From NCBI GenBank assembly GCA_048526005.1, contig DBFVEH010000021.1, positions 581,647 through 645,646 on the forward strand: DNA of 64,000 bases, read 5' to 3'. Made by a program: the position numbers and the translations under genes. The notes beneath the pieces are model-generated. The model searched no databases. It was not told the DNA's origin and worked only from the letters and a program-made list of their open reading frames with translations. Below are positions 2,487 through 46,755 of the stretch, in pieces. The stretch comes from Eubacteriales bacterium (GTDB lineage: Bacteria > Bacillota > Clostridia > Oscillospirales > CAG-272). The first letter of the stretch is position 1; each line of letters opens with the position of its first letter.

Positions 2487-3878
2487 TTAAAACTCCATTT
2501 TGTTTTCGATATAGGAGACAAGCTCCTCGGTGCGGATTCTCTCCTGCTCCATCGTGTCGCGGTCGCGGACTGTCACACAGCCGTCGTTTTCGGAGTCGAA
2601 ATCATAGGTGATGCAGAACGGCGTGCCGATCTCGTCCTCGCGGCGATAGCGCTTGCCGATGGAGCCGGACTCATCGAAATCCACCGTGAAATGCTTGGAA
2701 AGCGTATCGTGAATCGCCCATGCCTTTTCACTGAGCTTCTTGGAAAGCGGAAGCACCGCCGCCTTGACCGGCGCCAGCGCCGGATGCAGATGCAGCACGG
2801 TGCGCACATCGCCTTCCCCGATCGTTTCCTCGTCATAAGCGTCCACAAGGAACGCAAGCGCGACGCGGTCTGCGCCGAGAGACGGCTCGATGACATACGG
2901 AATGTATTTCTCGCCTGTCACATCGTCGAAATATTCCATCGATTCGCCGCTGTGATTCTGATGCTGCGTCAGGTCGTAATCCGTGCGGTCGGCGATGCCC
3001 CAAAGCTCGCCCCAGCCGAACGGGAACAGATACTCAAAGTCCGTCGTTGCCTTGGAATAGAAGCAAAGCTCCTCGGGACTGTGATCGCGGAGTCTCAAAC
3101 AGTCGCGGTTCATGCCGAGCGAATAAAGAAACTCGGCGCAATAGTTTTTCCAGTATGCGAACCAGTCGAGATCGGTACCGGGACGGCAGAAAAATTCAAG
3201 CTCCATCTGCTCAAACTCGCGGATGCGGAAGATAAAGTTGCCGGGCGTGATCTCATTGCGGAACGATTTGCCGATCTGCGCGATGCCGAACGGCATCTTG
3301 CGTCTGGTCGTCCTCGCCACATTCTTGAAGTTCACGAAAATGCCCTGCGCCGTTTCGGGACGCAGATACAGCTCGCTTGTGGAATCCTCCGTCACGCCCT
3401 GAAACGTCTTGAACATCAGATTGAACTGGCGGATATCCGTAAAATCATGGCTGCCGCAGTTCGGACAGGCGATCTCATGCTCCTTGATATAGGAGGTGAG
3501 CTGTTCATTCGTCCAGCCGCCGGGATTGTCGGAAAGCCCATGCTCCGCGGCATAATCCTCGATGAGTTTGTCGGCGCGGTGGCGCGTCTTGCACGCCTTG
3601 CAGTCCATGAGCGGGTCGGCAAAGCCTTTGAGATGACCGGAGGCCACCCATGTCTCCTTGTTCATCAGAATCGCGCAGTCGAGCCCGACGTTATACTTGG
3701 ACTCCTGAACGAACTTTTTCCACCATGCTTTTTTGATATTGTTTTTATATTCCACGCCGAGCGGACCGTAATCCCAGCTGTTAGCAAGGCCGCCGTATAT
3801 TTCCGAGCCCGGATAGACAAAGCCGCGGTTCTTGCAGAGCGCGACGATTTTTTCCATGGTCTTTTTTGAATTGTCCAT
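2487..3878 (-). CDS. glyQS: Glycine--tRNA ligase (homodimeric class II type)
   Basis: 463 aa. The N-terminus [34 protein letters not shown] and the rest match the GlyQS family end to end. Confidence 0.97.
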
Positions 3879-26173: not shown

Positions 26174-26250
26174 GAAGGCGTAGCTCAGCTGGTTAGAGTA
26201 TCTGCTTGACATGCAGGGGGTCGGTGGTTCAAATCCACTCGTCTTCACCA
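26174..26250 (+). tRNA. tRNA-Val (anticodon GAC), CCA encoded
   Basis: Folded by hand. The acceptor stem is GAAGGCG/CGTCTTC, the anticodon stem TCTGC/GCAGG with loop TTGACAT, the T-arm GGTGGTTCAAATCCACT, and a 3' ACCA. Confidence 0.9.
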
Positions 26251-26287
26251 ATAAAAGCACTCCGTTTCAAGAGTGCTTTTATCATAC

Positions 26288-26363
<76 letters not shown>

Positions 26364-34003: not shown

Positions 34004-35586
34004 TTACAAAAGCGGAGCGGCAGCAAGAAATCCAATCCAATCAGATCGTAAAAGGAGCCTGCTTCTGAACAGCCTGATTAGGCCGACAGAGGCATGCTCC
34101 TTTTCATATGGTGCAGCGAGTGCATTAAAATCCGAACCTATGCCAGCCGATTCGAGCTCAGCAAAGGTCATAGTTTTTGAACAGTCTTTGTAATTACAAC
34201 CGAAATATATACGCCCGTCATTATAAAGGATGATCGTATTTATAAAAGTATCTGTCAAACGGCGGCGATGTTCAAGTCTATTTGTGTTGAGCTTGCGTAA
34301 CCAGTCAAACCAAAATATATTTTGGTCTTTTGTCAAGGTCGGTTTTGCCTGCCATTTCTTCTTTCATGATCTGCACCGAAAGCTCACTCTTCTGACGCTC
34401 TAAATCTTCCATTCTCTGCTTCGTTGACGGAGTAAGTATTCCTTGCTGAATTGCATTGAGCAGATTATCAATACTTCTCTGCGTTTCTGCATACTGCTTT
34501 TTGAGTAACGGAAGCGTGGTATTTTCTACACACTGCATTTCCATTACTTTATCAGCTAGCATTTCAATCAGTTCATCATCAAATATAATTCTGCGAATAT
34601 AATCAATAACGAGATTTTCTATCCATTCTTTTCTGACTGTTTTCTTGTCACAGCCTTTATGATTCTTAACACTTACGCATTTATAATATCAATGCACTTT
34701 ATTTTTTTGACGGCTTGTTCCACTTTCACCAACCATATAGCATTGGCACTTACCGCATAACAATTTGGTAGTAAGCAGATATTCGTCTTCGGCTTTATGC
34801 TTAGCAGGAGCTTTTTTATTTGCTGCCATACGCTCCTGCACTCGCTCGAATAATTCTTGTGGGACAATAGCAGGAATACCGTCCGGTTGAACAATATCAC
34901 GATATTTGAATTCACCAATATATTTGCGGTTGTACAGCATACGGGTAACGCTGTTTATGCTGATTTTGCCGCCTCCTTTGGTACGAACACCTTTTAGATT
35001 CATTTCATCCGTGATCTCACGCATAGAGGCACCATCTGCATAATGCTTAAAAGCATCGAGAACAGCAGGTGCTGTGATTGGATCAATCTGAAAATACTGA
35101 TTAGAGCCAATCGTATAACCGATTGGAAGTGTATCGCCGTTATACTTGCATTTCAGTGCATTTTCAGTCAGTCCTCTTACAACCTTTTCGGACAGCTCTG
35201 CAGAGTAATATTCCGCCATACCTTCAAGCATAGATTCGAGCAAAACGCCTTCTGCACTGTCGGAAATCAACTCTGTTGCAGATACGACTTTTACGCCGTT
35301 CTTACGGAAAATGGATTTACAATGCGCCGAGTCATATCGGTTACGTGCAAAACGGTCAAGTTTCCATACAATGACAATATTAAACATACCGCTGGAACTT
35401 TCCTTGATCATCCGTTGAAAATCAGGGCGATTATCCGTCTTTGCGGATAGCGCACGGTCAATGTATGTACCGATAATCTGAATATCATTCTTTTCCACAA
35501 ACGCTTTGCACTCACGCAATTGTCCTCCTATAGATTCTTCTCAATTGATTATCACTGGAATACCTGGCGTAGATGACACCTTTCAA
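34004..35586 (-). pseudogene. Large serine recombinase, disrupted (at least 3 lesions)
   Basis: The pieces are in order. The N-terminus (TTG)KGVIYARYSSDNQ (35586 downwards) falls out of frame near 35541-35550. A 276-aa core follows (EESIGGQLRECKAF...VVWKLDRFARN...CGKCQCYMVGESG). An in-frame TGA lies at 34689-34691 (KVH*YYKC). The coiled-coil piece spans 34305-34562. A frameshift near 34330-34345 leads into the C-terminal piece (FINTIILYNDGRIYFGCNYKD). Confidence 0.85.
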
Positions 35587-35772: not shown

Positions 35773-35850
35773 CAAATTATTGTTGATTTACTCAAATTGT
35801 TGTTGAAATATGTTTTGATTTGTAGTATAATATAGTTATATAATTATATA
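35773..35850 (+). promoter_or_regulatory. Promoter with direct repeats and a palindromic operator candidate upstream of the Xre gene
   Basis: CAAATTATTGTTGA (35773-35786) and CAAATTGTTGTTGA (35793-35806) lie 20 bp apart. -35 TTGAAA (35803-35808), 17 nt, then TATAAT (35826-35831). The perfect 14-bp palindrome TATATAATTATATA (35837-35850) lies before the GGAGGA SD. Confidence 0.45.
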
Positions 35851-35873: not shown

Positions 35874-36083
35874 ATGCCTCGCTCATACAATAGGCTGTTT
35901 AAACTGATGATTGATAAGAATATAAATAAAACGCAATTGCGTGATAGTGCAGGAATCACTTCAAATGCAATGGCAAAAATCTCAAAGAATGAACCGGTAT
36001 CAATTGAAGTACTTGAAAAGATTTGCGGTGTATTGCAATGTAATATCGAGGATGTAGTAGAGGTGTTTCCCGATGCCGAATGA
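35874..36083 (+). CDS. XRE-family helix-turn-helix transcriptional regulator
   Basis: 69 aa: YNRLFKLMIDKNINKTQLRDSAGITSNAMAKISKNEPVSIEVLEKICGVLQCNIEDVVE, a classic short Cro/C1-type HTH. Confidence 0.8.
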   Translation: MPRSYNRLFKLMIDKNINKTQLRDSAGITSNAMAKISKNEPVSIEVLEKICGVLQCNIEDVVEVFPDAE

Positions 36084-36156: not shown

Positions 36157-37731
36157 ATGGCAAGAGCAGCTGCTAAACCAAAAAAAGAAATCACAATGGA
36201 AGAAGCACTGTGGAAAAGTGCGGACAAGCTTCGTGGCTCTGTTGAACCTGCGGAGTATAAGCATGTTGTCCTCAGCTTATTCTTCCTTAAATTTGCAAGC
36301 GATAAATTTGAAGCACAAAGAAAAGCAATTTCAGAGAAATACGGCGAGAAATTTGTAGACAACATCGCATTTTATACCAAGGATAATGTTTTCTTCCTGC
36401 CCGAAGAAAGCCGTTGGTCTTACATAATGGAAAACGCAAAGCAGGACGATATTGCCCTAAAAATTGATACTGCCCTTTATACGATTGAAAAAACAAATCC
36501 GGCGCTCAAAGGCGCTTTGCCGGACAACTACTAGTCCCGCTTACATATCGACACGGCAAAGCTGGCGTCTTTGCTGGATGAAATAAACAGCATTAACACA
36601 GATGATGAAGAAAACGACATTATCGGGCGTGTGTATGAATACTTTTTGAGCAAATTTGCGCTTGCCGAAGGTAAAGGCAAGGGCGAGTTCTACACACCGA
36701 AATGTATTGTCAATCTGATTGCCGAAATGCTGGAGCCTTACGACGGTATTCTTTACGATCCCTGCTGCGGCTCAGGCGGTATGTTTGTGCAGTCAATCAA
36801 GTTTGTTGAAGCACACAGCGGCAATAAGAAAAAAGTATCTATCTACGGTCAGGAATATACCAACACAACATTCAAACTGGCAAAGATGAACTTAGCCATT
36901 CGTGGTATATCTGCAAACCTCGGTGAGATGGCTGCAAACACTTTTACCAATGACCAGCACAAAGACTTGAAAGCCGATTTTATTATGGCAAATCCGCCTT
37001 TTAACCAAAAGGAATGGCGTGCTGCCAACGAGTTGACCAGCGATCCCCGATGGAATGGTTATGACGTACCGCCTACCAACAATGCAAACTATGGTTGGAT
37101 ATTGAATATTGTTTCCAAGCTTTCGCAGAATGGTGTTGCTGGATTCCTGCTGGCAAACGGTGCTCTTTCTGATGATGGCACAGAATTGAAAATCCGTAGA
37201 AAGCTTATTGAAAACAATCTTGTTGAGGCGATTATCATTCTGCCGAGAAACTTGTTCTATACCACCGACATCAGCGTAACACTTTGGATTTTGAATAAAA
37301 ACAAGAAAGCTCGTATTGTAGAACAGAATGGGCAGTTAAAGTGCTACCGCAATAGAGAGAAAGAAATTCTCTTTATGGATCTGCGGCAGATGGGTAGTCC
37401 ATATGAAAAGAAATATGTAGAGCTGACTGATGAAGAAAGAGCAAAGGTTACTGCGGTTTATCACAACTGGCAACAGGAAGACTACGAGGAAACCTATCAG
37501 AATGTGCCGGAATTTTGCTATTCCGCGTCCTTTGACGAGGTAAAAGAAAAAGGCTTCACCCTTGTGCCGAGTCGTTACATCGAGTTTGTCAACCGTGATG
37601 AGAACATCGACTTCGATACAAAAATGAAAACACTTCAAACAGAGCTGAAAGAGCTTTTGATTCAAGAGGAGAAGTCAAAAGCGAATTTGCTTGCGGTGTT
37701 TAAGGAGCTTGGATATGAAATCGAATTATAA
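36157..37731 (+). pseudogene. hsdM: Type I restriction-modification methyltransferase subunit HsdM, interrupted by an in-frame TAG
   Basis: GGAGGA SD and ATG 36157. The HsdM_N domain (LWKSADKLRGSVEPAEYKHVVLSLFFLKFASDKF) comes first. TAG at 36532-36534 lies in the same frame (…LPDNY*SRLHIDTAKLASLLDEI). The catalytic domain follows (GEFYTPKCIV, YDPCCGSGGMFV, ANPPFN). Confidence 0.85.
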
Positions 37732-38821
37732 AACTATTGGCGAATTAGTTGAAAGAATAGACCAACGAAATACAGAGGGTTCTATTACCAACCTAATCGG
37801 TGTTAGTATAGACAAGAAATTCATATCTTCAGTTGCTAATGTTATCGGAACAGACCTTACTAAATACAAGGTTATTGAAAAGTTCGATTTTGCAGTTAGT
37901 CTTATGCAGGTGAGCCGAGATGAAAAAATCCCCGTTGCTTGTCAAAAAGAGTTCGACAAAGCAATTATGTCTCCCGCATATCCAATTTTCAGAGTAAAAG
38001 ATACAAGTATCATTTTGCCTGAGTATTTAGAAATGTGGTTTATGCGACCTGAGTTCGACCGTGAAGCATCATTTATTGCAGTTGGTGGTGTTCGTGGCAG
38101 TATGCCATGGGAAGATTTTGCAAGAATAGAGGTTTGTGTCCCGCCTATCGAGGAACAGCAAAAAATAGTAAAAGCCTATCAGACCATTACGAAACGGATC
38201 GAATTGAAGAAGAAGATAAATGATAATTTAGAAGCACAAGCACAAGCGATGTTGCAAAGAAATATCAAAGAAAACAGTAAAAAATCAAAGGTTAATGACC
38301 TCATAACCCTGTATGATTTTCTGCGTCGTCCAATATCAGGGCTGGCTCGAGGTGGAATGGAAAGGAACTATCCATACTATGGAGCGGCAGCTTTAATGGA
38401 TTATGTAGATAACTATATATTCGAGGGAATTTATGGGCTGATTGGTGAAGACGGGACAGTTATGGATGAAGACGGCTACCCTACGATGCAATATGTGTGG
38501 GGTAAATTTTGGGTGAATAACCATGCCCACATCTTTCAGGGTAAGAACGGATATTCAACCGAGATCATATATCTTCTTTTAAAAAATACCGTTGTCCAAA
38601 ACACCGTGACAGGCGCTGTTCAGCTAAAGATAGCCCAAAAGAACCTTCGGAATCTGTCTGTCTTAGTGCCAACTGATGAAAACTTACGGGAAATTGATGC
38701 AGTGGTTCAGACATTTTTTAAGTACATTCGAGAAAACTGTGATGAGGTTGCACAGCTCAATAGATTGAATACTGTCATCCTATCAAAAATGGCTGAATAC
38801 GACGCTGAATTATCATTATAA
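37715..38821 (+). CDS. hsdS: Type I restriction-modification specificity subunit HsdS
   Basis: AAGGAG SD with ATG 37715 overlapping hsdM by 17 nt. It has two TRD-like halves separated by a helical spacer (EEQQKIVKAYQTITKRIELKKKINDNLEAQAQAM), with a second conserved helix at the C-terminus. Confidence 0.85.
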   Translation: MKSNYKTIGELVERIDQRNTEGSITNLIGVSIDKKFISSVANVIGTDLTKYKVIEKFDFAVSLMQVSRDEKIPVACQKEFDKAIMSPAYPIFRVKDTSIILPEYLEMWFMRPEFDREASFIAVGGVRGSMPWEDFARIEVCVPPIEEQQKIVKAYQTITKRIELKKKINDNLEAQAQAMLQRNIKENSKKSKVNDLITLYDFLRRPISGLARGGMERNYPYYGAAALMDYVDNYIFEGIYGLIGEDGTVMDEDGYPTMQYVWGKFWVNNHAHIFQGKNGYSTEIIYLLLKNTVVQNTVTGAVQLKIAQKNLRNLSVLVPTDENLREIDAVVQTFFKYIRENCDEVAQLNRLNTVILSKMAEYDAELSL

Positions 38822-38845: not shown

Positions 38846-39522
38846 ATGGCTATTCAGCTAACTCTTGGACAAGTAAAGGCTATTATCAAAAAAAGCGAAT
38901 ACTCAATTATAAGTGAAACTCGTGCTGGGAACAACTTGGGAATTGTATTAAAACTTTCAAATGGATGCAATATAAACTGTTGGGATAAAGGCACAGTAAA
39001 CTGTCAAGGAAAAAACGTAGACGAGATAAATAAAATATTGTCAGAGCTTTACAAACACAAACAACAAGTAATAAAAAGGTCTTTGTTGTGTATGGGCACG
39101 ATAGTAATGCTAAGACGCAGCTTGAGGCTATGCTCAGAAGATGGGATTTAGAACCTTTAATTTTAGATCAACTTGTTTCTTCAGGTCAAACTATCATAGA
39201 AAAATTAGAAGAATATACAAGCCAAGTAAATTTTGGTATTGTTTTAGCTACACCTGATGATATTGGTTATCCAAAGAATGATGAGTCAAAAAAGCAATAC
39301 AGAGCTCGCCAAAATGTCGTTTTAGAACTGGGAATGTTATTATCAAGGATTGGACGAGAAAAAGTTGCAATTTTACTTTCGCAGGCAGAGGATATGGAAA
39401 AGCCATCCGATATTGATGGATTGATATATATTCCATTTAAAGATAACATCGAAGAAACTAAATTGTCTTTAGCAAAAGAGATGCAAAACAATGGCTATGA
39501 ATTAGATATAGCTAAATTGTAA
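38846..39522 (+). CDS. RNase-HIII-N-terminal-like (TBP-like) domain fused to a Cap12/PycTIR-type TIR-like domain; requires a frame change at an A5 run (possible pseudogene)
   Basis: Track ORFs 38846..39151 and 39088..39522 overlap in different frames. One extra A in AAAAA (39073-39077) would give ...HKQQVIKKVFVVYGHDSNAK... (225 aa). The N-terminal NGCNINCWDKGTVNCQGKN resembles B. subtilis RNase HIII GCTITAYQSGKVLFQGKN. The C-terminal part matches the COG4271 TIR-like pattern (VFVVYGHD, ATPDDIG, RARQNVVLELG, PSDIDGLIYIPF). Confidence 0.7.
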
Positions 39523-39715
39523 GAAGTCTGAGGTAACCACATAACCAACTTTAACGAACACACAATATAACTATCCATCCTGGAGCTGCTTACGGATGAA
39601 CAATATACCTATCTGACAGGAGAGAAAATGCACAAAGAATACATAAATTTTCTTACTTATAATATTTAATTTTCATTTTAATGCTTTGAAATTATTATGT
39701 GACTGAGGTGATGAG

Positions 39716-40876
39716 ATGGATAAACAAGAACAGGAAATCAAATCAGTAGATGTAGATTTGCTTGATGAATACTGTAGCAGATTAGCAGATGAAAAAATTT
39801 GTATTACAGACGACTATGAATTTGCGAAAACGATTGATTCTGTCATAGAAGGTGACGCGTATTTAAGCAGAGCTCAAATTGAAAAAAGTGTCATTAAATC
39901 GGGAGTACAAAAATATTTTTGTTACTACCCGTTAACATCCAATCAGAAAATTGTTTTTGCAAATGATTTAACAGATTTTCTAAAAGTAATTTTGGAAGAA
40001 GATAGCGATATAAAATTCAAGCAATTTTACCGTGGACATGGGAACTGGATATTTGATATGATACCAGGAATATACAGAAAGCAGAACCGGAATATTTTGC
40101 AATGTGAGTCTCAGTATATTCATGAAATGATTGCTTCATACCCCAACTTTTTCAGTGAATGTAAAACGGCACTTGATTATTTAGTAGTATTACAGCATTA
40201 CTCATTTCCTACGAGATTGTTAGATTTTACAGAAAATCCTCTTGTTGCATTATATATGGCATGCGCAAGTGAAAAAAGTGATTTTGCAGATGTCATAAGA
40301 ATAAATGTGGAACCAACTGGTTTTAAATACTATGACAGCGATTCTATTTCATTGCTTGCAAATATGGCTTTTGCAGATGATAAATTTGATGTTAGCGATT
40401 ATTCCTTTATAGATTATTATCATTCATATGAGGATGACAAAGTAGATAGGGCATATAAGGAACATTACAATACTCTGATAAAACAATTTAATGATAGAGA
40501 TGATATCACAAGATTTTTGCACCTGGTACGGGGTGAAAAACCTTATTTTAAGGCGAAAATAAAACCGGAACATTTTGACAACGCTATTTTATGGGTAAAA
40601 GCCAAGCAAGACTTTCAAAGAATTGTTAATCAAAGCGGGATTTTCGCTGTTTTCGGAATCAATCGAAATAAGCAGAATATGATAGAGTTTCCTTATCAAA
40701 AATATAATATGCTGCATATTTTAATCCCGCCGGAGTATAAAGAAAAGATTTTGCATGAATTAGATAAAATACATATCAATCAAGCAACCTTGTATTGTGA
40801 TATGGATCGAATTACGTCCTTTCATATAGAAAAATTCCGAAAAGAAAGTAAGAGAGGAGACAAGAAAAATGTTTAA
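39716..40876 (+). CDS. FRG domain-containing protein
   Basis: 386 aa with a GAGGTG SD. FRG-domain signature: FYRGHGNWIFDMIPGIYR, VVLQHYSFPTRLLDFTENPLVALYMAC, QRIVNQSGIFAVFG. The stop overlaps the hsdR start. Confidence 0.8.
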   Translation: MDKQEQEIKSVDVDLLDEYCSRLADEKICITDDYEFAKTIDSVIEGDAYLSRAQIEKSVIKSGVQKYFCYYPLTSNQKIVFANDLTDFLKVILEEDSDIKFKQFYRGHGNWIFDMIPGIYRKQNRNILQCESQYIHEMIASYPNFFSECKTALDYLVVLQHYSFPTRLLDFTENPLVALYMACASEKSDFADVIRINVEPTGFKYYDSDSISLLANMAFADDKFDVSDYSFIDYYHSYEDDKVDRAYKEHYNTLIKQFNDRDDITRFLHLVRGEKPYFKAKIKPEHFDNAILWVKAKQDFQRIVNQSGIFAVFGINRNKQNMIEFPYQKYNMLHILIPPEYKEKILHELDKIHINQATLYCDMDRITSFHIEKFRKESKRGDKKNV

Positions 40877-43800
40877 TGAGCATTCATTAGAATTGTCCGT
40901 TATGGAGTTATTCCAAAGTGAGGGATATACCTTTCTCAGCGGCGAGCAAATACATAGAGAACGCTCAGAGGTTTTACTTGCCGATGACCTCCGACAGTAT
41001 TTGTATAAACGCTACGCAAAGGACGGCATTACCACCGGTGAGGTGGACAGCATTCTGCTTATGCTGCGAAATGTCTCCGGTACGATTTATGAGGCAAACA
41101 AAGCAGTTTATAAGCTCCTTTGCGACGGCTTCATCTTAAACCGTGAGGATAGAACACAGAAAGACCTGTATATTGAGCTGATTGACTTTGACACTCCTGA
41201 AAACAATAGTTTTAAGGCGGTCAATCAGTTTGAAATCGAAGGCGTAGGCGGTCAGCTTCGTATTCCCGACGGGATAGTGTTTGTCAATGGTATTCCCGTT
41301 GTGGTGATGGAGTTTAAGAGTGCCGTGAAAGAAAACACAACCATCATAGATGCATACAAACAGTTGACTGTCCGTTACCGCCGAGATATTCCCGAACTGT
41401 TCAAATATAATGCTTTTGTTGTAATCAGCGATGGGGCAAACAATAAATATGGCTCCTTCTTCAGTCCGTATGATTTCTTCTATGCGTGGAGAAAAATCGA
41501 CTCAGACGATAAGGAATTAGACGGGATCAATTCTCTTGTTACAATGGTAAAAGGTCTTTTCAGAAAAGAGCGCTTACTTGCTGTAATAAAAGACTTTATC
41601 TATTTCCCTGATAATTCAGACAAAGATTTGAAAATTGTCTGCCGCTATCCGCAGTTTTTCGCCGCAAACAAACTGTTTGAAAACATCAAACTGCATATGC
41701 GCCCCAAGGGAGACGGAAAGGGAGGAACATATTTCGGTGCTACCGGCTGTGGTAAAAGTTACACTATGCTTTTTCTCACCCGTATGCTGATGAAAAGCAA
41801 GTCCTTTCACAGCCCCACCATTTTAATTATCACCGATAGAACAGACCTTAACGATCAGCTTTCCAAGCAATTCATCGCTTCTAAAAAGTTTATCGGGGAT
41901 GAAACGGTTATCAGCATTGAATCCCGTGAAAAGTTACGGGAAGAACTGCAAGGCAGAGAAAGCGGGGGCGTATATTTAACAACCATTCAGAAATTCACAG
42001 AAGATTTGCAGCTTTTGACCGACAGAGCAAATGTCATCTGTATCTCCGACGAAGCGCATAGAAGTCAGATCAATCTTGAGCAAAAGGTAAAAATAACTGA
42101 GGCTGGCGTGGAGCGCAAATACGGCTTTGCTAAGTATCTACATAATTCTTTGCCCAATGCAACTTATGTAGGCTTTACCGGGACGCCAGTAGACGGAACA
42201 ATAGAAGTATTCGGCGGCGTGGTGGACGCCTATACGATGACAGAATCCGTCCGGGACGGTATCACGGTCAATCTTGTTTATGACGGTCGGGCGGCAAGAG
42301 TCACGCTGGACAACGAAAAAATCAAGCAAATCGAACAATACTATGCGAAATGTGAACGAGAAGGCGCCAACGAACATCAAATTGAAGAAAGTCAAAAAGC
42401 AATCGCCAACATGGAGATCATCATCGGCGATCCCGACAGACTGCATGCCGTTGCCGAGGATTTTATAAATCACTATGAAACTCGTGTTGCAGAAGGCGCT
42501 ACGGTTGCGGGCAAAGCAATGTTTGTATGCATGAACAGAGGTATCGCATATGACCTTTATAAAATCATTGTAGAACTGCGTCCAGAATGGGCAGTTAAGA
42601 AAATCGCAGATGATGGGATAGTTCTAACCGAGCAGGATAAAAAAGAGTTAAAGCCTATCGAAAAAATCAAGATGGTAATGACCCGCAATAAGGACGATGA
42701 AAAAAAACTCTATGATATGCTCGGAACGAAGGACGACCGCAAGGAACTGGACAGACAGTTTAAGAATGTTAAGTCCAATTTCAAAATTGCGATTGTCGTA
42801 GATATGTGGCTGACAGGCTTCGATGTGCCGGAGCTTGATACCATTTACATAGACAAGCCGATTCAGCAGCATACGCTGATACAGACCATTTCCCGTGTCA
42901 ACCGTGTGTGTGAGGGTAAGGACAAGGGACTGATCGTTGACTATATCGGTATCAAAAAGAATATGAACACAGCTCTTAAAAAATATACTAACTTTGAGAG
43001 TGATGAATTTGAAGGAATAGAACAGTCGGTAACGATTGTGAAAGACCAGTTAGAGATATTGGGACAAATGTTCCATAACTTCAACAGCCGAGATTTCTTC
43101 GACGGTTCTCCGACAGAGCAGCTTGCTTGTCTTAACAGAGCTACTGAATATGTGCAGCTTTCAGAAGAACTTGAAATCCGTTTTATGGCGGCTGTTAAAC
43201 GGATGAAACAGGCGTTTAATTTATGCAGCTCCAGCGATAAATTCAGCGATGAGGACAAGGACTATATCCATTTTTACTGTGCTGTGCGCTCAATATTATT
43301 CAAGCTGACAAAGGGGGACGCTCCCGATATTTCTCAGATGAACGCAAGAGTGCGTGAAATGCTGGAAGGAGCTATCCAATCTGACGGGATCGAGGAGCTT
43401 TTTGAAGCGGGCAAGCATATTTCGGTCGATATTTTCAGCGATGAATATATGGATAAAATCAATGCAATACAGCTTCCGAATACGAAGATAAAGATTTTAC
43501 AGCGGCTTCTTTCACAGGCGATCGACGAGCTCAAGAAGGTCAATAAGATCATGGGCATAGAGTTTGCTGACAGGTTAAAGCGAGTTGTTGATGAATACAA
43601 TAATCGTCGCAGAGATGAAGCATACGCCAATGAGGTTCTTGACGATATTGCTGAACAGCTTGCACAGCTTTTATCCGAACTTAAAACAGAAAAAAACTCT
43701 TTTGAGAAAATGGGTATCGATTATGAGGAAAAAGCGTTTTATGATATTCTGAAAGCTGTTGCAAAGAAATTTGAGTTTGACTACCCCGATGATAAAATGA

Positions 43801-44000
43801 TTGAGCTTTCCAAACGGATTAAAGGCGTCGTGGACGATAAGGCTCGATATACGGACTGGTCTACTCGTGAAGATATTAAAGCCAATTTACAGGTTGATCT
43901 GATCCTTCTGCTTGATAAGTTTGACTATCCTCCGGTTACAATTGATGATGTTTACAAAGAAGTATTGGAACAGGCGGAGAACTTCAAAAAGTATGCGTAA
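40869..44000 (+). CDS. hsdR: Type I restriction endonuclease subunit HsdR
   Basis: 1043 aa, intact. It has an HsdR N-terminal nuclease region, a helicase motif I (GATGCGKSYTM) and the DEAH box (ISDEAHRSQ), with a long helical C-terminus. Confidence 0.95.
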   Translation: MFNEHSLELSVMELFQSEGYTFLSGEQIHRERSEVLLADDLRQYLYKRYAKDGITTGEVDSILLMLRNVSGTIYEANKAVYKLLCDGFILNREDRTQKDLYIELIDFDTPENNSFKAVNQFEIEGVGGQLRIPDGIVFVNGIPVVVMEFKSAVKENTTIIDAYKQLTVRYRRDIPELFKYNAFVVISDGANNKYGSFFSPYDFFYAWRKIDSDDKELDGINSLVTMVKGLFRKERLLAVIKDFIYFPDNSDKDLKIVCRYPQFFAANKLFENIKLHMRPKGDGKGGTYFGATGCGKSYTMLFLTRMLMKSKSFHSPTILIITDRTDLNDQLSKQFIASKKFIGDETVISIESREKLREELQGRESGGVYLTTIQKFTEDLQLLTDRANVICISDEAHRSQINLEQKVKITEAGVERKYGFAKYLHNSLPNATYVGFTGTPVDGTIEVFGGVVDAYTMTESVRDGITVNLVYDGRAARVTLDNEKIKQIEQYYAKCEREGANEHQIEESQKAIANMEIIIGDPDRLHAVAEDFINHYETRVAEGATVAGKAMFVCMNRGIAYDLYKIIVELRPEWAVKKIADDGIVLTEQDKKELKPIEKIKMVMTRNKDDEKKLYDMLGTKDDRKELDRQFKNVKSNFKIAIVVDMWLTGFDVPELDTIYIDKPIQQHTLIQTISRVNRVCEGKDKGLIVDYIGIKKNMNTALKKYTNFESDEFEGIEQSVTIVKDQLEILGQMFHNFNSRDFFDGSPTEQLACLNRATEYVQLSEELEIRFMAAVKRMKQAFNLCSSSDKFSDEDKDYIHFYCAVRSILFKLTKGDAPDISQMNARVREMLEGAIQSDGIEELFEAGKHISVDIFSDEYMDKINAIQLPNTKIKILQRLLSQAIDELKKVNKIMGIEFADRLKRVVDEYNNRRRDEAYANEVLDDIAEQLAQLLSELKTEKNSFEKMGIDYEEKAFYDILKAVAKKFEFDYPDDKMIELSKRIKGVVDDKARYTDWSTREDIKANLQVDLILLLDKFDYPPVTIDDVYKEVLEQAENFKKYA

Positions 44001-44094: not shown

Positions 44095-44547
44095 AATAAA
44101 ACAACCAAATAAAACATACATAAGTCTTATTGCAGAATATAGCCGAGAACAATTGGCTTGACAGCATAGGGCTTATTTTTATCCCCTCTTGATGGTGTGT
44201 ACCTTGACAAACGCATAAAGAAAAATGTAATCCCTGCACGGATACTGTCAAGGCATACCCATACAGTTTTCACGCAGGGATTTTTACATATCAGTTGAAA
44301 GGAGTTAACGAAAACATGATTGCGTCAATATTCTATCTCGTAGGGATAGGCAAGCATATTGTTTGTATAGACGTCGACCTACCGGCCGCCGCATACAAAC
44401 AGCTTGTCGGGGGTGAACCCCGAACTCAAAAGGAAACGCACAGGGAAAATAAAATGCAGCGGATGAACACCGCTGGTGCGAGTTGTCAGCGGTGATACAC
44501 CGTCCGCAGAAAGAGAGGACAAAACTAAAACCGACAACAAAACAAAA

Positions 44548-44841
44548 ATGATTGCCATGCGTTTTCGTGAGAGCGATTACACGGCAATCAAAAGAAAAGC
44601 TGAAAAAGCAAATATGAACTTCACTGAGTTTGTAACGGCAGCGGCGATGAACAAATCCATTACTATCATAAACGGCTTAGAGGATGTGCTGAAAGAGCAG
44701 AAAGCAATCGGCAGAAATCTCAATCAGTTGACAACTCTCTGCAATATGGGCAAGATTGTCTGTCCCGACTTGCGGGAACTGAAAGAACAATATGCCGATA
44801 TGCTGACCGCGCTTAATGAGATTATCGGGAGGTGTGGATAA
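44548..44841 (+). CDS. MobC-family relaxosome accessory protein
   Basis: MIAMRFRESDYTAIKRKAEKANMNFTEFV (RHH-like) plus the MobC signature IGRNLNQLTTLCNMG. The start is uncertain (track ORF begins at 44476). Confidence 0.7.
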   Translation: MIAMRFRESDYTAIKRKAEKANMNFTEFVTAAAMNKSITIINGLEDVLKEQKAIGRNLNQLTTLCNMGKIVCPDLRELKEQYADMLTALNEIIGRCG

Positions 44842-46191
44842 TAGCAACCTTTACAGCAATCTCAGAAAAGACACAGCCCGCCACAGCTATGAAGCGAGTG
44901 CTTGATTATGTGATGCAAGATAAGAAAACTGTAATTGATAGCATTAAACTTGTCAGCGGTCAGAACTGTGTTCCTGAATCATCATACCAAGAGTTTATGC
45001 AACCAAGCTTTGATACGGTAAAGCGACAGGTGTGTTCTTCAAACAGTATGTGCAATCCTTTAAACCGGATTGCGGTGCTACGCCGGAGCAGATACACCAA
45101 ATCGGATTGGAAACGGCAAAAGCCTTTGACGGATTCGAGGTTGTTGTGGCAACGCACATTGACCGCGACCACTGGCATAATCATTTCGTTGTCAACTCGG
45201 TAAACTGTGAAACCGAATATAAAATTCAGATCAATGAAAAAGACTTGGAAGAACTATGGCAACGGTCAGATGAAATCTGTCAGCAGTTCGGTTTGCAAGT
45301 ATTGCAGCCATATCAAAAACCTAAACAACGGTCTTTAAATCAGCGAGAGTACCGTGCTGCATTACGCGGTAACAGCAAAAAGCTGAAAATTAGCAACGCC
45401 ATAGATTATGCGGTAGCAATGAGCCGAAACAAAAAGCAGTTCATCGAGCAGTTACAGAAACTCGGATACGGTGTGAAATGGATAGATCATGATAAATATA
45501 TCACCTATACAACACCGGACGGTCAGCGGTTTCGGGACAACCGCTTGCTCGATGACAAATATTTAAAAACTAATATGGAGGAATTATTTGCTTATGAATA
45601 TGGAGCAGTTAAAACAGATCAATCAAATACAAACGATAACCGAGCAGATGGTAGACGCTTTGACAGAACCGATACAGCCGATATACTTGATGTTGAAACC
45701 CGAACAGTACAATCTGTTGGCACAGCACATTTCACAGACTGGAAACGCCATTGTGCGAAAGACGGATTTGATATCCGAGTTGCCAACGCATCAGGATTTG
45801 AACAATCTAACGGTGCAGACGCTCAGACCGTATTTAGCAGAGATGCGAAAGATAACGGCAGACAAGCTGGACTCAATAGAGTATTCCACCAAGGACAAAT
45901 TATCGAAGCAGACGGAATCCTTGAAAGAGCAACTACACAAGGGGAGATCAAGCGTATGATGAACGAGCTGAAAGCCAAGGATCTGACGCCATGGAAACTC
46001 AAACTGAAATGGGCGGCGGTTGGAGCGATATTGCCGTCAATAGCCTGTATCTTGCAGCTGATCTTGCGATGATCGGAGGTATGGACAATGAGAAATCCAA
46101 GCCAAAATATGTCCATGAACGAAAGCACGGGCAGAAGAAAAAACAAACTCAAGACAGCCAAAACGATGGCGGTATGCAAATGAATATGTAA
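44832..46191 (+). pseudogene. MobA/VirD2-family relaxase, disrupted (frameshifts and in-frame TGA)
   Basis: The N-terminal piece (frame of 44832, ...SSYQEF) shifts at about 44997. TGA at 45011-45013 lies in the frame carrying ATKL*YGKATGVFFKQYVQSFKPD...VVATHIDRDHWHNHFVVNSVN (HxDxxHxH relaxase motif). The natural-looking sequence then moves to other frames at about 45590 and about 45990 (C-terminal ...HERKHGQKKKQTQDSQNDGGMQMNM). Confidence 0.75.
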
Positions 46192-46541: not shown

Positions 46542-46628
46542 TGGTGCGGATAACAGGACTTGAACCTGCATGAACTTGCATTCACTAGAACCTGAATCTA
46601 GCGCGTCTGCCAATTCCGCCATATCCGC
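46542..46628 (-). tRNA. tRNA-Leu (anticodon CAG), CCA encoded
   Basis: The reverse complement is GCGGATATGGCGGAATTGGCAGACGCGCTAGATTCAGGTTCTAGTGAATGCAAGTTCATGCAGGTTCAAGTCCTGTTATCCGCACCA. It has a long variable arm and the anticodon loop TTCAGGT. Confidence 0.9.
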
Positions 46629-46668: not shown

Positions 46669-46755
46669 TGGTGCGAGAAACGGGACTTGAACCCGTATGG
46701 TAAAACCACACGCCCCTCAAACGTGCGCGTCTGCCAGTTCCGCCACTCTCGCATA
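46669..46755 (-). tRNA. tRNA-Leu (anticodon GAG), CCA encoded
   Basis: The reverse complement is GCGAGAGTGGCGGAACTGGCAGACGCGCACGTTTGAGGGGCGTGTGGTTTTACCATACGGGTTCAAGTCCCGTTTCTCGCACCA. It has a long variable arm and the anticodon loop TTGAGGG. Confidence 0.9.

Follow-up and report, generated by a model that had tools for sequence, protein, structure and literature searches.

A 64,000-nt stretch of contig DBFVEH010000021.1 from an Eubacteriales bacterium (the whole stretch is called the window below) carries a type I restriction-modification (R-M) operon with two additional genes, gene A and gene B, between hsdS and hsdR. All the genes are on the + strand, in the order hsdM-hsdS-gene A-gap-gene B-hsdR on the map of open reading frames (ORFs), and the type I subunits flanking the cassette form a complete set (hsdM, hsdS and hsdR). 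The hsdS-hsdR interval is probably a cargo slot holding two independent single-gene defence candidates that were placed side by side by recombination. Both genes are already catalogued separately, gene A as PDC-S35 and gene B as PDC-S15, where PDC-S denotes a single-gene phage defence candidate. The features of the locus are the following (aa, amino acids).

35874-36083, + strand: gene for a 69-aa HTH_26 protein (Cro/C1-type helix-turn-helix, HTH) at the head of the operon (ORF map)
36157-37731, + strand: hsdM, type I methyltransferase (Pfam), with an in-frame TAG at 36532-36534
37715-38821, + strand: hsdS, specificity subunit, 368 aa, intact (Pfam Methylase_S; PADLOC Specificity_I)
38846-39522, + strand: gene A, PDC-S35 pseudogene (ORF map, Pfam, PADLOC, alignment)
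39541-39642 (approximate), + strand: decayed 5' stub of hsdR (alignment to the stretch from gene A stop to hsdR start of locus L003, and to HsdR N-termini)
39643-39668, no strand: junction at which the remnant of the A-type operon meets the B-type cassette, without homology to either parent type
39716-40876, + strand: gene B, PDC-S15/FRG, 386 aa, intact (ORF map, Pfam, PADLOC)
40869-44000, + strand: hsdR, type I restriction subunit, 1043 aa, intact (Pfam HSDR_N, SWI2_SNF2, T1R_D3-like and T1RH-like_C; PADLOC REase_I, 1209 bits)

Genes A and B and the lesions of the operon

The gene order, strand, coordinates and spacings given in a preliminary description of this DNA were confirmed by the ORF map and the sequence. 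hsdM and hsdS overlap by 17 nt, gene A follows hsdS after 24 nt, 193 nt with a GC content of 0.32 lie between gene A and gene B, and the ATG of hsdR is located 8 nt inside gene B, the stop of which overlaps the start of hsdR. The GC content of the cassette is 0.32-0.33, versus 0.42 for hsdM and hsdR and 0.50 for the whole window. Promoter-like sites were found upstream of the HTH gene at 35803-35844; the sites predicted inside the cassette did not exceed the shuffled expectation, and no terminator-like site was found on the + strand from hsdS to hsdR. Gene B is most likely co-transcribed and translationally coupled with hsdR.

The domain assignments of the preliminary description, TIR-like for gene A and FRG for gene B, are borne out by Pfam. 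The C-terminus of gene A matches PF10137 (CAP12-PCTIR_TIR; E 2.7e-37, 127.8 bits against a cut-off of 24.7), and gene B matches PF08867 (FRG; E 7.3e-18, 65.7 bits against a cut-off of 25). PADLOC-DB v2 was searched with a repaired gene A sequence, in which about 11 linker residues are off and the domains are unaffected; it matches the PDC-S35 models PDLC05006 (E 5.6e-96, aa 6-225 on model positions 2-231) and PDLC05003 (E 2.9e-67). Gene A consists of an N-terminal alpha/beta domain of about 66 aa (38846-39043), followed by a linker and the TIR-like domain (39049-39519), and its intact relatives are 223-225 aa long. The TIR models of CBASS and Pycsar match gene A weakly and over the TIR portion alone (NCBIfam Cap12 equivalog, 38.8 bits against a cut-off of 450; PADLOC PycTIR, E 2.3e-14, aa 87-211). 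A profile search against the PDB retrieved Cap12 and PycTIR, and the catalytic-type Glu in the gene A motif RQNVVLELG aligns with that of RDNVVFEFG in Cap12. RQNVVLELG is invariant in 22 relatives, and the motifs GHD and TPDD are likewise invariant in relatives.

Structure prediction followed by Foldseek, which the preliminary description had suggested for both genes, gave TIR matches on the gene A side and no significant match for gene B. The AlphaFold2 (AF2) model of P0004, an intact relative of gene A, matches the TIR domains of TIR-STING/Cap12 (7un8, 9lmq), AbTir, PdTIR, SARM1 and SPARTA. Its N-terminal 66 residues or so form an alpha-beta4-alpha unit (pLDDT 76-88) with the invariant pattern NGC..CWD.G...QGK. 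With the N-domain, the profile search against the PDB gave spurious matches to DARPin and SUI1 only, and Pfam gave a lone weak match to DUF3378 (E 0.073) in 1 of 14 members. RNase H3 stands in the Foldseek list of the gene A model at ranks 13 and 37 only, with poor root-mean-square deviation.

The preliminary description presented gene A as one gene at 38846-39522. The extent holds, but it is not a single ORF: a first ORF covers 38846-39151 and is continued by an ORF in the -1 frame that ends at 39522. When aligned with intact relatives, gene A proves to have lost 1 nt in the linker between its two domains, at about 39046/39047 (TCAGAG^CTTTAC). Six contigs, assembled separately and from different samples, share exactly this deletion: L001 and the sibling contigs L169-L173 (five distinct contexts), all of them 99.96-99.995% identical to the window. 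Placing the lesion in the A5 run at 39073-39077 was rejected, as AGTAATAAAAAGGTC is also present in intact relatives and is read in frame there. Sequencing error was rejected as well, the site not being a homopolymer and the same deletion being present in six assemblies; the non-homopolymer site also makes phase variation unlikely. The dN/dS values against intact relatives are low in both halves of gene A (0.03-0.16), and the pseudogene is therefore young. Gene A is thus a young pseudogene, inactivated in this lineage. Independently split copies are also found at L106 and L165, and locus L096 carries two intact PDC-S35 copies (82-765 and 3055-3738) in one operon with hsdS shufflon modules between them. 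Such recurrent duplication and inactivation fits a costly effector.

One might suppose instead that gene A is still made at full length through -1 ribosomal slippage at A_AAA_AGG (39073-39079). This site lies inside a stretch in which both frames are open (39034-39151), the open frames and the dN/dS values of the two halves would suit a translated gene, and the frameshifted allele is widespread: the frameshift is present in 6/6 sibling contigs, and 187 collection blocks contain an identical HsdS. However, AAAAAGG is read in frame in intact relatives and is therefore not a derived feature, A_AAA_AGG is not a canonical X_XXY_YYZ heptamer, and no stimulatory structure was seen, none having been searched for. 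Low dN/dS is expected when a young pseudogene is compared across a long branch that precedes the lesion, and the copies at L106 and L165 were broken independently. Slippage is therefore extremely improbable.

Gene B has an uninterrupted reading frame, and its dN/dS of 0.11 against its relatives at L002 and L009 indicates purifying selection. It matches the PDC-S15 model PDLC04933 (E 2.2e-74) over aa 83-376, and FRG was matched in 33/33 aligned relatives; an N-terminal alpha/beta region of about 80 aa lies outside the best PADLOC model. The invariant residues include R106-G107 (FRG motif), Q160-H161, R167, D170, D207-S208-D209, K295 and R302. The FRG domain has been predicted to be a member of the ADP-ribosyltransferase (ART) superfamily, possibly an NADase (PMC9503650). 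Foldseek of the gene B model (AF2, pLDDT 87, pTM 0.85) against the PDB gave a best E of 0.24 and no ART entry in the top 50, a search that can overlook very divergent cores. Neither the profile of gene B against the PDB nor its model against BFVD gave a significant match, and a permissive Pfam scan of 33 family members gave no ART or RES match. Judged from the model, the FRG fold appears to be structurally uncharacterised in an abundant family.

The position of hsdM was given correctly in the preliminary description, but the in-frame TAG went unreported. At 36532-36534, codon 128 (Tyr) is changed from TAT to TAG, whereas TAT is intact in the sibling contigs L169-L172, where hsdM encodes 524 aa. 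Apart from the TAG, the window is identical to L169 and L170 across 21,107 bases and to L171 across 12,989 bases. The nonsense mutation is thus a private knockout in this window. Because restriction requires the HsdR2M2S1 complex (PMC12255303, PMC11411939) and hsdM is interrupted, the type I enzyme is probably inactive here, with both modification and restriction lost.

Separation of the two genes at the locus and in their families

The 193-nt gap has the length and the low GC content of the AT-rich gap in the preliminary description, but it is not a plain spacer, since it contains the hsdR 5' stub. By BLAST, homology of the window to loci with gene A only runs beyond the gene A stop to about 39639-39642, and in those loci the stretch homologous to the gap is the start of hsdR. 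The gap translates as NFNEHTI*LSILELLTDEQYTYLTGEKMHKEY, with the ATG lost and an internal stop; the genuine HsdR N-termini compared with it are MANFNEHALEMSIMELFKDEGYTYVSGDQIHRER (L003) and MFNEHSLELSVMELFQSEGYTFLSGEQIHRER (window). From 39669 onward, 47 nt before the start of gene B, the window is homologous to the B-type locus L002. As judged from these alignments, the stub is a recombination scar of the fusion of an A-hsdR operon to a B-hsdR cassette. An ancestral hsdS-A-hsdR operon was fused, about 35 codons into hsdR, to the B-hsdR cassette, so that the 5' stub of the former hsdR was left between A and B. The stub is direct evidence that the two genes came to be adjacent by accident, through the stacking of cassettes.

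The preliminary description took the two genes for a TIR-like + FRG gene pair and suggested a survey of their gene neighbourhoods. We surveyed 182 loci, comprising 80 + 4 A-family loci from metagenomes and viral contigs, and 80 + 18 FRG loci, of which the 80 genomic ones represent one genome per species and the other 18 are on viral contigs. Loci were annotated with custom hidden Markov models, adjacency was defined as a distance within 300 nt, and the A-family sample is narrow (68-89% identity, one HsdR family). A and FRG genes are adjacent in 0/182 loci (0/80 and 0/4 A loci; 0/80 and 0/18 FRG loci), and homologues of the two genes were thus never neighbours. Among the 80 A-family loci from metagenomes, Hsd genes are present in 71, hsdR lies directly downstream in 31/66 and hsdS directly upstream in 45/66; of the 33 loci with long flanks (3 kb or more on both sides), 32 are in type I context, and an FRG gene is found in nine of the 80. 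The 80 genomic FRG loci include 14 with detectable Hsd genes (11/47 of those with long flanks), with hsdR directly downstream in 6/75 and hsdS directly upstream in 7/70, and a TIR-like gene in a single locus (L033). On viral contigs, two of the 18 FRG loci have the order hsdS-FRG-hsdR, none with a TIR-like gene, and two of the four A loci have the order hsdS-A-hsdR, none with an FRG gene.

The nearest relatives of the two genes are likewise found apart. Gene A relatives at 87-89% identity (L003-L008, L089-L091) are arranged as hsdS-A-hsdR, 4-75 nt upstream of hsdR and without FRG. Gene B relatives at 81-86% identity are arranged as hsdS-B-hsdR (L009) or hsdS-DUF4238-B-hsdR (L002), without a TIR gene. 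A-type proteins at 47-56% identity (L214, L215) and plasmid TIR-like genes are found outside R-M. TIR-like genes occur in 1,149 plasmid records and FRG genes in 278, with toxin-antitoxin (TA) modules, RES, DUF4238 and insertion sequence (IS) elements as neighbours. Since both families are common outside R-M, and on plasmids by TA, RES and DUF4238 genes, both would be autonomous. The gene pair of the preliminary description can therefore not be maintained, with no adjacency in the survey, the nearest relatives apart, a scar between the genes, and gene B intact versus gene A broken. The neighbourhoods instead indicate that A and B are unrelated single genes from a shared pool of independent cargo.

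Several points weigh against this reading and against the roles proposed below. Nine of the 80 A loci do have an FRG gene in the same operon, of a different clade (28-35% identical to gene B), and at L033 a TIR-like gene and the FRG gene are about 500 nt apart. A baseline for chance co-occurrence was not obtained, and the contigs selected by HsdR represent two lineages in many shufflon states. The occurrence of close A relatives in type I operons (32/33) would also suit dependence on the R-M enzyme. The AF2 model of P0004 has a pLDDT of only 67, and the assignment of the N-domain of gene A as a TBP-like/RNase HIII-N-like nucleic-acid-binding domain is weak and tentative. The FRG model is confident, yet it matches no ART-like or other solved fold. 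Our literature search found no experimental anti-phage or enzymatic reports on PDC-S35 or PDC-S15.

The shared operons bear on the possibility that A and B form a cooperative two-gene system based on NAD+, for example with the TIR making a signal derived from ADP-ribose for an FRG/ART-like effector, of which the window would hold a decayed copy. The nine loci involve about four to five distinct FRG clades, L033 has its TIR-like gene close to the FRG gene outside R-M, and the literature ties both domains to NAD+/ADP-ribose chemistry. In the nine loci, however, an integrase and an hsdS shufflon part the two genes, or the FRG gene lies beyond hsdR, on its opposite side. At L033, the TIR-like protein is a distant one whose N-terminal domain differs, and no R-M operon surrounds its gene. 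Adjacency is absent from all 182 loci, 79/80 genomic and 18/18 viral FRG loci lack a TIR-like neighbour, and FRG is absent from most A loci. In addition, gene B is under purifying selection while gene A is dead, and PADLOC enters both as single-gene candidates. Cooperation of the two genes is thus very unlikely.

A second possibility follows the analogy of PrrC: the Hsd complex could keep A and/or B inactive and release them when it is attacked by a phage anti-restriction protein. If so, the PDC-S35 TIR, and possibly an FRG protein coupled to hsdR, would trigger NAD+ depletion upon attack on R-M. This would account for the embedding of close A relatives (32/33 long-flank loci, mostly 4-75 nt upstream of hsdR) and for the FRG genes of several clades whose 3' ends reach or overlap the start codon of hsdR, as that of gene B does by 8 nt; PrrC itself is likewise nearly always embedded. 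However, the A-type proteins at L214 and L215 and the plasmid TIR-like genes occur outside R-M, and only 11/47 long-flank FRG loci are in detectable type I operons. The embedding of A may be inherited, the sample being narrow. The hsdR stub shows that position was set by recombination at the conserved 5' end of hsdR, and TgvAB, a tested embedded system, still protects without HsdR restriction activity. A guard function of this kind is therefore unlikely, and two independent genes sharing one cargo slot remain the preferred reading.

Surroundings of the operon

The 69-aa HTH gene at the head of the operon is identical in L169 and L170, where it is annotated PF13443, and a small HTH gene also precedes hsdM in related operons. 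By its position, which resembles that of C proteins and RptR, its product is likely an operon regulator; it may be a dedicated one, because the gene is conserved ahead of hsdM across the family. The protein also shows a weak PADLOC match to PDC-M69A (E 3e-4).

To the left of the operon (34004-35519, - strand), a serine recombinase is represented by a 276-aa Resolvase/Recombinase ORF and downstream fragments of 85 and 110 aa. To the right are a NikA-like gene (44476-44841) and a relaxase gene (45032-46072), the latter fragmented in the siblings L169, L171 and L173. The fragmented recombinase together with the NikA-like and relaxase genes suggests that the operon sits in a decaying integrated mobilisable element. 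Two tRNA-Leu genes (46542-46628 and 46669-46752, - strand) mark the right edge of the island. Homology to L172 breaks off precisely where one tRNA-Leu gene ends, at 46628, and homology to L171 starts at 35833; from these boundaries, an R-M/mobilisation segment of about 10.8 kb lies in different flanks in different genomes. A tRNA-Val/tRNA-Ala pair is located at 26174-26363.

In such a setting the embedded genes could be selfish cargo, that is, toxin-like addiction or stabilisation genes of a mobilisable island in a recombination hotspot rather than anti-phage genes. The decaying element with its broken serine recombinase, NikA and relaxase is consistent with this, as are the plasmid relatives among TA modules and IS elements, and the literature holds no experimental defence data that our search could find for either family. 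TIR domains of the PF10137 family have, however, been shown experimentally to act as NADase effectors of CBASS and Pycsar defence (7un8, 9lmq, 8jsj), and a purely selfish role is highly improbable.

The operon family shows further variation. A protein 100% identical to HsdR is present on 61 contigs, and contigs with identical HsdR differ in shufflon state only. Many operons of the HsdR family of the window (L174-L189, L003, L095 and others) carry a tyrosine recombinase and inverted partial hsdS genes, that is, a phase-variable specificity shufflon. In the shufflon operons, small cargo (DUF4365, a 174-aa protein, a 266-aa protein or PDC-S35) is found just after the primary hsdS. Among L181-L189, one sister lineage has a McrBC-like pair (AAA_5/McrB_lid + McrBC) directly after hsdR and another has YjbR and an IMS-family polymerase there; from this, cargo gathers downstream of hsdR too. 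DUF4238 is followed by FRG in the type I slot of L002 (6998-9127) and preceded by a TIR-like gene on the Klebsiella IncR plasmid pKPN-a41 (L191, 4368-6631), with a RES NAD+ phosphorylase gene nearby. As a neighbour of both the TIR-like and the FRG families, DUF4238 may be a further member of the same cargo pool.

Relation to known systems and predicted roles

The preliminary description regarded the genes as defence or abortive-infection candidates embedded in type I R-M, and this is sound, as the same rationale has been published for the PDCs: 145 candidates situated within BREX, DISARM and type I R-M systems were collected by "guilt-by-embedding" and added to PADLOC (Payne et al., bioRxiv 10.1101/2024.01.29.577857). 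It also took them for an undescribed system. This part does not stand, since the PADLOC scan that it proposed matched the named entries PDC-S35 and PDC-S15, and the ART/NADase prediction for FRG is published. Payne et al. tested Hma-embedded candidates (HECs) only, not PDC-S15 or PDC-S35 (bioRxiv 10.1101/2024.01.29.577857), and PDC-S15, PDC-S35, FRG and PF10137 were not found among those of their supplementary files that were searched. The literature found to mention PDC-S15 consists of genome surveys only.

Gene A shares with PDC-S35 the layout of a short N-terminal domain and a PF10137 TIR-like domain as well as the embedding in type I R-M, and the usual context of the family, hsdS-A-hsdR without other cargo, is that of a single gene. 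The window copy differs in being a frameshifted pseudogene without an intact coding sequence. In the case of PDC-S15, gene B lies directly upstream of hsdR, as do several other FRG clades, and adds its N-terminal region of about 80 aa to PDLC04933.

Cap12 (TIR-STING) of CBASS and PycTIR of Pycsar belong to the same Pfam TIR family as gene A, with the catalytic-type Glu aligned, and are its best PDB matches, but gene A lacks a sensor domain of the STING, SAVED or cNMP-binding type. No CD-NTase or other PADLOC CBASS component was found among the operon genes and their neighbours, no pyrimidine cyclase in the island, and no match to ThsA or ThsB models among the genes scanned from 31.7 to 48.3 kb. 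The preliminary description had likewise noted no CD-NTase, cyclase, SAVED, ThsA or other known partner in the island, and the PADLOC scan agrees. Membership in CBASS, Pycsar or Thoeris was rejected, as the required partners and sensor domains were not found. Because the island has neither a CD-NTase nor a cyclase, gene A would not be activated by a cyclic nucleotide from a neighbouring gene.

Previous studies indicate that the hsdS-hsdR interval is a recombination hotspot for defence genes, with DarTG2 (PMC12255303), TgvAB (PMC11411939) and PrrC as tested examples; TgvAB protects without HsdR restriction activity, but its protection is weaker than that of the entire cluster (PMC11411939). In sister operons of the window the slot holds DUF4365, the 174-aa protein, DUF4238 or integrase + hsdS shufflons. 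PrrC in EcoprrI, DarTG2 in the RRDM island and TgvAB in VPI-2 occupy the same position as genes A and B and follow the same principle, whereby a type I operon houses an additional defence with a mechanism of its own; the RRDM island also has a small upstream regulator, as the window operon does. Genes A and B have no sequence relationship to PrrC, DarTG or TgvAB. The window differs from these examples in having two single-gene cargos in a row, one of which is dead, and no sign of physical or regulatory coupling of A or B to the Hsd proteins is seen here.

By analogy with other bacterial TIR effectors, intact PDC-S35 is most likely a self-contained abortive-infection NADase. Its N-domain would sense an infection cue, possibly nucleic acid; sequence and model hint at a TBP-like nucleic-acid-binding sensor. 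Sensing of the cue would lead to assembly of the TIR domains and thereby to NAD+ depletion. Gene A is dead in this lineage through the 1-nt deletion in its linker, and gene B would most likely work alone as a second effector, for which the literature predicts an NAD+-using enzyme of the ART superfamily.

The locus is an ordinary instance of an established phenomenon and bears a clear recombination scar as well as two inactivating mutations. Its proper annotation is a type I R-M operon with PDC-S35 (pseudogene) and PDC-S15 rather than a new TIR + FRG system. The window gives no special ground for prioritising PDC-S35 or PDC-S15; both families are abundant, with thousands of homologues and hundreds of plasmids, and are reasonable targets for defence screens. 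The hsdR 5' stub records how cargo genes stack in the hsdS-hsdR hotspot. The PDC-S35 subfamily is found nearly always in type I operons of gut Firmicutes and is repeatedly broken, which fits a costly abortive-infection effector.

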